A DNA stretch of 64,000 bases from Escherichia coli (GTDB lineage Bacteria > Pseudomonadota > Gammaproteobacteria > Enterobacterales > Enterobacteriaceae). The position numbers were made by a program, and so were the translations under genes. Position 1 is the stretch's first letter. Every line of letters starts with the position of its first letter. The stretch lies in assembly GCF_001677475.2 (NCBI RefSeq), contig NZ_CP015229.1. One strand, 5' to 3'. Under the pieces are notes generated by a model. That model was not told the origin of the DNA. It did not search any database and was given only the letters and a program-made list of their open reading frames with translations. Positions 26,243 to 28,826 of the stretch are shown one piece after another.

Positions 26243-26788
26243 ATGAGTGCCAATGAAAACAACCTGATTTGGATCGATCTTGAGATGACCGGTCTGGATC
26301 CCGAGCGTGATCGCATTATTGAGATTGCCACGCTGGTGACCGATGCCAACCTGAATATTCTGGCAGAAGGGCCGACCATTGCAGTACATCAGTCCGATGA
26401 ACAGCTGGCGCTGATGGATGACTGGAACGTGCGCACCCATACCGCCAGCGGGCTGGTAGAGCGTGTGAAAGCGAGCACGATGGGCGATCGTGAAGCTGAA
26501 CTGGTAACGCTCGAATTCTTAAAACAGTGGGTGCCTGCGGGAAAATCGCCGATTTGCGGTAACAGCATCGGCCAGGATCGTCGCTTCCTGTTTAAATATA
26601 TGCCGGAGCTGGAAGCCTACTTCCACTACCGTTATCTCGATGTCAGCACGCTGAAAGAGCTGGCGCGCCGCTGGAAGCCGGAAATTCTGGATGGTTTTAC
26701 CAAGCAGGGGACGCATCAGGCGATGGATGATATCCGTGAATCGGTGGCGGAGCTGGCTTACTACCGCGAGCATTTTATCAAGCTGTAA
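26243..26788 (+). CDS. orn: Oligoribonuclease
   Basis: ORF 26099..26788; start trimmed to [23 protein letters not shown] (181 aa, DEDDh exonuclease). Confidence 0.93.
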
Positions 26789-26914
26789 ATTTTTTCCTGG
26801 TCACGTAAGCGCCGTAATCCACTTGCGGTGGCGTGATTTTGACGCTAAATTGAACGTCTTGCCGATAATTTCAGCACTTGAGATAAAAACTCAAAAAAAA
26901 ATTTTTTAGGGGGG

Positions 26915-26942
26915 TTGCAGAGGGAAAGATTTCTCGTATAAT
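26915..26942 (+). promoter_or_regulatory. Promoter of glyV-glyX-glyY tRNA operon
   Basis: TTGCAG (26915-26920) - 16 nt - TATAAT (26937-26942), upstream A/T-tract, GC-rich discriminator gcgcctcc. Confidence 0.7.
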
Positions 26943-26999
26943 GCGCCTCCCGTAACGACGCAGAAATGCGAAAATTACGAAAGCAAAATTAAGTAGTAC

Positions 27000-27075
<76 letters not shown>

Positions 27076-27232
27076 AAATTTGAAAAGTGCTGCAAAGCAC
27101 AGACCACCCAATCGCAGTATTTCGAATTGCGACAAGGCGGCAACTGAACGAATCCTTGGGAGCTTACAAAAGTAAGTGACTAAGGTGAGTGAAGGCAGCC
27201 AAGGCAGTAGCGGTTCGAAAGACGAAGATTAA

Positions 27233-27308
<76 letters not shown>

Positions 27309-27343
27309 AAATTTGAAGGTGCTGTAAAGCACAGACCACCCAA

Positions 27344-27419
<76 letters not shown>

Positions 27420-27688
27420 AATTCTTCTCTCAATAAAATATCCACAGCGACGCGATGCGTTATTGCTGGTTTTTGTTGTCTCTGACAAACTCTTGTAAAC
27501 AGAGTTATCCACAGCCTCAGTCCGTAATCTTAATTTCAAAGAAACTTCGCACGGTGAATAGTATTTTTTTAACCTATTGATAGGTAAGTTAAAAATTAAG
27601 ATTCCGTTTTGTCGAGTCGATCACTTGACGATTTTATTCGTCTTGAATTGCAATGCGTTTTTATTTTTATTCACAAGCTGTGGATGAA

Positions 27689-28826
27689 TCAGGCGTCACG
27701 CGGTAACCCTTTTTCAATCACCCGAACCAGACGCTGTTTTTTCGGCAATTGCACTTCGACTATGCACGCATTTCGCCTCTCGATTTGCTGCGCCATCGCC
27801 CACGCTATGTGCTCATCAAGAAGTGGGTGCTCACCTTTGCGACTCTCCAGCGCCGCCAGAATCGTTTCATCCCAGGGGGCATTGCCTAATGCCACGGCGA
27901 TATTACGCAGCCAGCGCAGGTGACCTATACGGCGAATCGCCGATCCTTCCGTGACTTTTAAAAACTTCTCTTCGCTCCAGGCGAATAACTCAATGAGTTC
28001 CGGTGCGTGTAGCGGCTTACGCGGGCTGAAATCGTCTTCTGTAGTGAGTTGCGAATAGCGATTCCACGGGCAGATAAGCTGGCAGTCATCGCAACCGTAA
28101 ATACGGTTTCCCATTAACGGTCGCAACTCTTCCGGGATCGCCCCTTCCAGTTCGATGGTGAGATAAGAGATACAGCGGCGAGCATCGACGGTATATGGCT
28201 CGACGATGGCACCGGTCGGGCAAATCGTCATACAGGCCACGCATTTACCGCATCCTTCCTCGACTGGTTGATCCACGGGCAGCGGAATATCGACCAGCAA
28301 TTCGCCTAAAAAGAAGAACGAACCGGCCTCGCGATTGAGGATAAGTGAGTGCTTACCTGTCCAGCCGAGCCCAGCTTTTTCAGCTAACGGGCGCTCGAGA
28401 ATAGGCGCAGAATCGACAAACGGTCTAAAATTCAGCGAAACACAATGTTGCTGAATCATCTCGCCCAGCTTTTTGAGTCGGTTGCGCAGAAGCTTGTGAT
28501 AGTCACGGCCCAGCGCATAACGGCTAACATAGCCGAGTTTGGGGTTTTTCAGCGTGCTGGCAAATGCGGCGTTAGCAGGAAGGTAATTCATCCGCACGCT
28601 GATCACGCGCAGCGTACCGGGCAATAACTCATGGGGGCGAGCGCGCAGCATACCGTGACGCGCCATCCAGTCCATTTCGCCGTGGTATTGTTTGTCCAGC
28701 CATGCTTGCAGTTTTGGCTCGGACTCGCTGAGATCGGTATCGGTAATACCTACCTGCTGAAAGCCCAGTTCCAGCCCCCACTGTTTAATTTTTTGCGCTA
28801 ACTGATTGAGATCGAGGGGCTCTGAC

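Follow-up and report, generated by a model that had tools for sequence, protein, structure and literature searches.

The 64,000-nucleotide stretch of Escherichia coli DNA analysed here (the window; contig NZ_CP015229.1 of NCBI RefSeq assembly GCF_001677475.2) contains the tRNA operon glyVXY, followed on the opposite strand by queG, which encodes an epoxyqueuosine reductase. The 269-bp gap between them, which runs from the end of glyY at 27419 to the queG stop codon at 27689-27691, holds a group of DnaA boxes together with one IHF-binding site (Table 1). RefSeq annotation under the matched segment lists a 'hypothetical protein' and queG, and the element described below is absent from it. Elsewhere in the window, Rfam models matched a Guanidine-II (mini-ykkC) riboswitch at 12004-12050 on the plus strand (49.3 bits; gathering score 32) and an RpsF leader at 59989-60073, also on the plus strand (110 bits), at the start of the rpsF operon.

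Table 1. Genes and sites in and around the glyVXY-queG intergenic region (positions in the window; DnaA box consensus TTWTNCACA)
Feature	Position	Strand	Sequence	Remarks
glyV-glyX-glyY, three tRNA-Gly(GCC) genes	27000-27075, 27233-27308, 27344-27419	+		ARAGORN and Rfam; gene order as in MG1655
DnaA box 1	27438-27446	+	ATATCCACA	dispensable for DDAH (PMC10950094)
Box 1 with glyVXY attenuator/terminator TglyV-X-Y	27438-27475	+		imperfect stem CAGCGA...TTGCTG, then GTTTTTGTTG
DnaA box 7	27493-27501	+	TTGTAAACA	two misfits to consensus; 3 bp upstream of box 2
DnaA box 2	27505-27513	+	TTATCCACA	perfect consensus; high affinity, essential
IHF-binding site core	27570-27582	-	TATCAATAGGTTA	fits WATCAANNNNTTA; flanked by A/T tract at 27583-27600
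yjeV, 17-codon ORF	27653-27706	+	MRFYFYSQAVDESGVTR	MG1655 b4670 via gap-free alignment; overlaps boxes 3 and 4 and the queG 3' end
DnaA box 3	27667-27675	+	TTATTCACA	exact TTWTNCACA; high affinity, essential; oriented as boxes 7 and 2
DnaA box 4	27679-27687	-	TCATCCACA	opposite orientation; auxiliary
queG, epoxyqueuosine reductase, 379 codons	27689-28828	-		ORF and MG1655 annotation; convergent with glyVXY; 3' end bounds datA
One-misfit box inside queG	28336-28344	-	TTATCCTCA	candidate box 5

Alignment of window positions 27400-27760 with MG1655 positions 4392639-4392999 was gap-free, with 358 of 361 bases identical. The three substitutions relative to MG1655 (27521 G>T, 27523 T>C and 27584 A>G) fall in spacers only, and the two sequences agree fully in the IHF core and in boxes 1, 7, 2, 3 and 4. 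The region is thus homologous to the characterised datA of MG1655, and its flanks, with glyVXY upstream and a convergent queG, are arranged as they are there. Boxes 2 and 3 point the same way and enclose a single IHF site, and the low-affinity box 7 adjoins box 2. The placement of datA between glyVXY and queG matches the literature (PMC10950094, PMC5742627). We consider it nearly certain that the cluster of DnaA boxes 3' of glyVXY is datA, the DnaA-inactivating and DnaA-titrating locus of E. coli; no feature of the sequence speaks against this. It is an already known locus, and the finding itself contains no new biology. We take its map position to be 94.7 min, approximately 0.47 Mb from oriC. 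The datA literature includes Kitagawa et al. 1996/1998, Kasho and Katayama 2013 on DDAH, and Kasho et al. 2017.

Within the locus, the core is ordered as box 7, 3 bp, box 2, 56 bp, IHF site, 84 bp and box 3, with all three boxes co-oriented; box 1 upstream and box 4 downstream are accessory sites. Minimal datA has been described as 183 bp long, with essential boxes that point in one direction (PMC5742627). The span 27493-27675 has precisely this published length, and the core that is conserved across families coincides with the minimal datA delimited by experiment. The numbering of boxes 3, 4 and 7 was derived from secondary descriptions, primer sequences and geometry, and the assignment of boxes 1, 7, 2, 3 and 4 given in Table 1 is the only one that fits PMC5835720, PMC5742627 (box direction and the 183-bp length) and PMC10950094 (box 1 and the attenuator) together. 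The two consensus boxes are boxes 2 and 3, with the IBS between them (PMC5835720), and TTGTAAACA fits the description in that paper of box 7 as a low-affinity box essential for DDAH. Box 4 has been found to stimulate DDAH in vitro while not being essential in vivo (PMC5742627). A literature search for TTATTCACA together with datA returned no relevant match. Published oligonucleotides also map to these sites. Primer subDnaAbox2_L (PMC10950094) replaces exactly the 9-mer at 27505-27513, and primer ChdatAsubIBS mutates 27576-27584. The IHF core TATCAATAGGTTA is identical to the MG1655 datA IBS shown in PMC4585315 Suppl. Fig. S11. Three further primers of PMC10950094, T1T2-frtkan-R and the deletion primers delter_L and delteronly_R, map to the box 1/attenuator region; the attenuator-deletion primers bracket 27438 to ~27463, with box 1 inside. 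The box TTATCCTCA within queG is a possible member of the original five-box datA of approximately 1 kb, perhaps box 5.

Boxes 1, 2 and 4 had been listed in a sequence-only reading of the window as three DnaA-box-like 9-mers in an untranslated gap between the tRNA operon and the queG 3' end, and all three were found at the positions and on the strands that it gave. The yjeV ORF of MG1655 maps to 27653-27706, so 'untranslated' is not wholly accurate for the gap as annotated. The boxes listed were real, but the inventory was incomplete: it overlooked the IHF site and boxes 3 and 7, all of them essential, and among the three sites listed the essential core is represented by box 2 only, box 1 being dispensable and box 4 auxiliary.

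The same reading judged the cluster mildly unexpected, on the grounds that less than one perfect 9-mer is expected in a window of this size. The latter figure is correct: TTATCCACA occurs once in the 64-kb window, and shuffled sequences give an expectation of 0.42. A functionless chance cluster of A/T-rich 9-mers would be compatible with this count, since at least one perfect 9-mer appeared in 35 of 100 shuffles, so that a lone site is not significant, and one-mismatch sites are common (19 in the window). Clustering is what chance does not reproduce. Four sites with at most one mismatch lie within 250 bp, the fourth being TTATTCACA, and in first-order Markov simulations of the window (n = 1000) four such sites were never reached and three were reached in 0.8%. 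Exact matches to TTWTNCACA number two in the whole 64 kb, at 27505 and 27667. The background-rate check proposed with the sequence-only reading (here shuffles, mismatch search and simulations) therefore favours function. The cluster does exceed chance, although 'mildly unexpected' understated the case, and datA was not recognised.

DnaA occupancy was another of the proposed checks, and published ChIP-seq data provide it. Enrichment at the region named 'datA' (coordinate 4392740) is 213-fold, with the peak lying over boxes 7 and 2, and is similar to that at oriC (218) and at DARS2 (213) (PMC11317965, Table 1). The double box reported for this peak, cTTGTAAACAgagTTATCCACAg, is identical to window positions 27492-27514, and the peak centre at MG1655 4392740 corresponds to window position 27501 in the gap-free alignment. 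The coordinates of PMC11317965 are stated to be those of NC_000913.2, but its oriC and datA numbers fit NC_000913.3. Strong in vivo occupancy by DnaA is thus predicted for the window from MG1655, whose boxes match those of the window. The 213-fold peak also argues against a chance cluster, as does the conservation of boxes, spacing and IHF site in five families while the spacers diverge; the probability of that explanation is practically nil, and we regard it as excluded.

Conservation was analysed within E. coli and beyond it. Of 5426 complete E. coli genomes, 5425 carry the 266-bp datA segment (27425-27690) as a single copy, mostly with 95-99% identity, in agreement with a study of 59 genomes (PMC4585315). 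Relative to every complete E. coli genome searched (n = 5426; best identity 99.2%), the allele in the window has two or more substitutions in the 266 bases, and no allele-specific substitution falls inside a known datA site. The allele may come from a Shigella or from an Escherichia lineage not represented among these genomes. For the cross-species scan, one genome per species was searched for the 3' end of tRNA-Gly(GCC) with TTATCCACA 70-100 bp further on, which gave at least 120 loci; the set was selected in this way for box 2 after tRNA-Gly, and the frequency of species without datA is not derivable from it. The matches listed belong, with the exception of three, to Enterobacterales, and they comprise Enterobacteriaceae (27 genera), Erwiniaceae, Yersiniaceae, Hafniaceae and Pectobacteriaceae. 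The informative set consisted of the 113 Enterobacterales loci among the matches listed that had enough downstream sequence, or 114 with the window included. In the three other matches, one from Lysobacterales (L015) and two from Moraxellaceae (L025 and L014), TTATCCACA lies 93-96 bp after an identical tRNA-Gly 3' end. Neither a second box nor a datA-like architecture was found in L015 or L025, and the L014 sequence was too short to judge; all three are probably chance matches.

The box array is kept in these related Enterobacterales species, which answers the conservation check that the sequence-only reading had also proposed. Among the matches listed plus the window, TTATNCACA occurs on the plus strand 159-164 bp after box 2 in 114/114 loci, and for 91 of the 114 this distance, from box 2 to box 3, is 161 bp. 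In the same set, the last four bases of box 7 are AACA in 110/114 and the spacer between boxes 7 and 2 is GAG or GAC in 108/114, while box 1 has at most one misfit to TTWTNCACA in 96/114. Of the 114 (matches listed plus window), 80 contain an IHF-like core with no more than one misfit, compared with 13 of 114 for a neighbouring control stretch. If two misfits are allowed, 112 have such a core, and in 82 of these it lies at a fixed offset of +65 from the start of box 2. A convergent QueG homologue directly downstream of box 3 was found in 108 of the 113 loci among the matches listed. Column conservation, expressed as the majority-base fraction in the matches listed, was 0.99 for box 3 outside its N position, 0.87 for box 1, 0.85 for box 7, 0.81 for the specified IHF positions and 0.68 for box 4, and 0.54 for the remaining intergenic columns. 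Box 4, with at most one misfit, is retained in 63/114 (matches listed plus window), and its distribution among the matches listed differs by family: Erwiniaceae 23/23, Enterobacteriaceae 37/66, Yersiniaceae 1/14 and Hafniaceae 0/5. Box 4 is clade-specific in this comparison.

The small ORF yjeV overlaps part of the conserved region, and coding constraint on it was considered as a cause of the conservation around box 3. This was rejected: an ATG is found at the homologous position in 37 of the 114 loci (matches listed plus window), and the variable base coincides with the N position of the box. The DnaA boxes account better than coding does for the conservation at 27653-27706.

A fixed architecture also bears on how the cluster acts. 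In the original model, reportedly that of Kitagawa and Ogawa, datA is a pure titration sink, a high-capacity reservoir that, after its duplication, takes up free DnaA and does not catalyse ATP hydrolysis. The discovery of datA as a chromosomal fragment with exceptional DnaA-binding capacity, its multiple high-affinity boxes and a ChIP-seq signal as high as that of oriC all speak for such a role. A sink, however, could do without the fixed 161-bp spacing, the single orientation and the constant offset of an IHF site, features that are conserved in five families, and published spacing and orientation mutants reportedly fail to complement (PMC5742627). We therefore judge titration to be unlikely as the full account. 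The titration and DDAH models are mutually compatible, and pure titration is a partial truth. An oriC-like origin was rejected, as 27420-27690 contains no AT-rich unwinding element with 13-mer repeats (GATCTnTTnTTTT); boxes 2 and 3 stand 161 bp apart around the IHF site and do not form an origin-like dense array.

The position of the locus between convergent transcription units suggests a different role, in which bound DnaA, together with IHF, would act as a roadblock or terminator of glyVXY read-through, as a regulator of yjeV or as a shield for queG, with replication control being secondary. DnaA is a known transcription factor (PMC11317965), box 1 overlaps the attenuator, and mutation of box 2 or the IBS raises read-through RNA (PMC10950094). 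Box 2 and the attenuator, however, set basal read-through only and are dispensable for initiation timing, and transcription has been interpreted as a regulator of datA rather than the reverse (PMC10950094). Moreover, datA stays active when it is carried on plasmids or placed elsewhere in the chromosome near oriC (PMC4585315), and the yjeV start codon is present in 37/114 loci (matches listed plus window). We consider a primary role in transcription control very unlikely, and inactivation of DnaA remains the preferred reading.

In the mechanism proposed in the literature for datA as a DnaA-inactivating locus, IHF would bind the central site after initiation and bend the DNA sharply (PMC5742627). 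This bend would allow a head-to-tail oligomer of ATP-DnaA to form at boxes 7/2 and box 3 (PMC5742627), in which contacts between protomers, involving Arg285, Arg281 and the sensor-2 Arg334, would stimulate hydrolysis of the bound ATP (DDAH; PMC5742627). Release of ADP-DnaA would permit catalytic turnover, so that ATP-DnaA is lowered and untimely re-initiation repressed. The boxes would in addition titrate DnaA directly (PMC5835720). Timing is proposed to come from IHF binding that depends on the cell cycle. The glyVXY promoter gives read-through that crosses datA, and this read-through would be required to keep or drive IHF off the site before initiation; it would itself be damped by the glyVXY attenuator, which lies over box 1, and by DnaA at box 2 (PMC10950094). 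TglyV-X-Y overlaps box 1 according to the same study, which also holds that timely dissociation of IHF needs a further, as yet unnamed factor (PMC10950094). [quoted passage not shown] The contribution of datA should be seen in proportion: it is dispensable for viability, and its share of ATP-DnaA hydrolysis is small next to that of RIDA (PMC5835720; also PMC4585315). According to PMC11331064, cells that lack every extrinsic regulator of DnaA are able to behave almost normally.

The read-through transcript over datA is longer in the window than in MG1655. The glyV-glyX spacer at 27076-27232 measures 157 bp, compared with 36 bp in MG1655, and the extra ~121 bp presumably represent an ERIC/IRU repeat (GAATCCTTGGGAGCTTACAAAAGTAAGTGACTAAGGTGAG), which they resemble as judged by ERIC primer sequences. 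This ERIC-like insertion lies inside the read-through transcript and adds ~121 nt to it. ERIC-like sequence gives a median of 7 matches per E. coli genome, and a long glyV-glyX spacer is found in ~1606 of 5426 complete E. coli genomes (~30%). A scan of 26780-27800 for sigma-70-type promoters yielded none that passed, so PyjeV could not be placed and the conserved TTGAC and TTGAAT blocks described below are not explained as a promoter.

The stretch from the IHF site to box 3 contains three short blocks whose conservation in five Enterobacterales families comes close to that of the known sites. The first, GATCRCTTGAC (GATCACTTGAC), at 27619-27630, has a conservation of 0.78 in the matches listed, compared with 0.54 in other spacer columns. 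Its GATC at 27619-27622 is the sole Dam site in the locus (27420-27690) and is kept in 89 of 113 species among the matches listed. The second is TTGAAT at 27643-27648 (conservation 0.88 in the matches listed), and the third is a T-rich tract at 27658-27666, directly 5' of box 3 (0.91 in the matches listed). No counterpart of these blocks was found among the datA elements in the literature searched, a search outside which the original datA papers lie, and Kasho et al. 2013/2017 may already account for them. We suggest, tentatively and as a rather doubtful possibility, that they form a binding or methylation-sensing site for the IHF-dissociation factor, or extra low-affinity contacts for ATP-DnaA that set the 161-bp geometry. 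A consensus scan also flagged a terminator-like hairpin at 27609-27631 on the plus strand, a short way downstream of the IHF site and followed by TTTTATT. It was rejected as a conserved structure and is probably not real: RNA folding of 27600-27645 showed no unusual stability (z = -1.26) and gave a minimum-energy structure without the flagged stem, and the 5' arm of the hairpin is not kept in Citrobacter, Enterobacter and other genera, so that the stem is not conserved outside Escherichia.

With oriC, DARS1 and DARS2, datA is one of the four non-coding elements of the E. coli chromosome that set the ATP/ADP state of DnaA and hence the once-per-cycle timing of replication. A tool-free reading of raw sequence is evidently able to catch real regulatory DNA that lacks RefSeq annotation. 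The value added by the present analysis lies in the phylogenetic footprint, which recovers across families, and independently, the minimal core of box 7, box 2, IHF site and box 3 with its spacing of ~161 bp, and which sets this core apart from box 4, which is clade-specific, and from yjeV, an ORF of poor conservation.

The closest known system is the datA of E. coli K-12, which occupies the same locus between the same flanking genes; the window carries an allelic variant only, and K-12 lacks the ERIC-like glyV-glyX insertion of the window. More distant counterparts are the DnaA-box clusters of Bacillus subtilis and Streptomyces coelicolor, which, like datA, lie outside the origin and repress untimely initiation (PMC5742627, PMC10950094). 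Unlike datA, they are thought to titrate DnaA, and they share neither sequence nor position homology with it. We know of no demonstration of IHF-dependent ATP hydrolysis for these clusters. Within E. coli, the left half of oriC, with R1, an IHF site and low-affinity boxes, resembles datA in its co-oriented boxes, its IHF bend and its head-to-tail oligomer of ATP-DnaA, and both loci need Arg285 and Arg281 of DnaA (PMC5742627). In contrast to oriC, datA has no duplex-unwinding element, 13-mers or helicase loading, and its output is Arg334-dependent ATP hydrolysis, whereas that of oriC is unwinding; IHF binds datA after initiation and oriC before it. DARS1 and DARS2 are, like datA, non-coding chromosomal clusters of DnaA boxes that change the nucleotide state of DnaA, and DARS2 shares with datA a cell-cycle-timed binding of IHF (PMC5742627, PMC10380432), although it needs Fis besides IHF. 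The DARS core consists of oppositely oriented boxes I-III, whereas the boxes of datA point in one direction, and the effect of the DARS elements is the opposite of that of datA: ADP is released and ATP-DnaA is regenerated.
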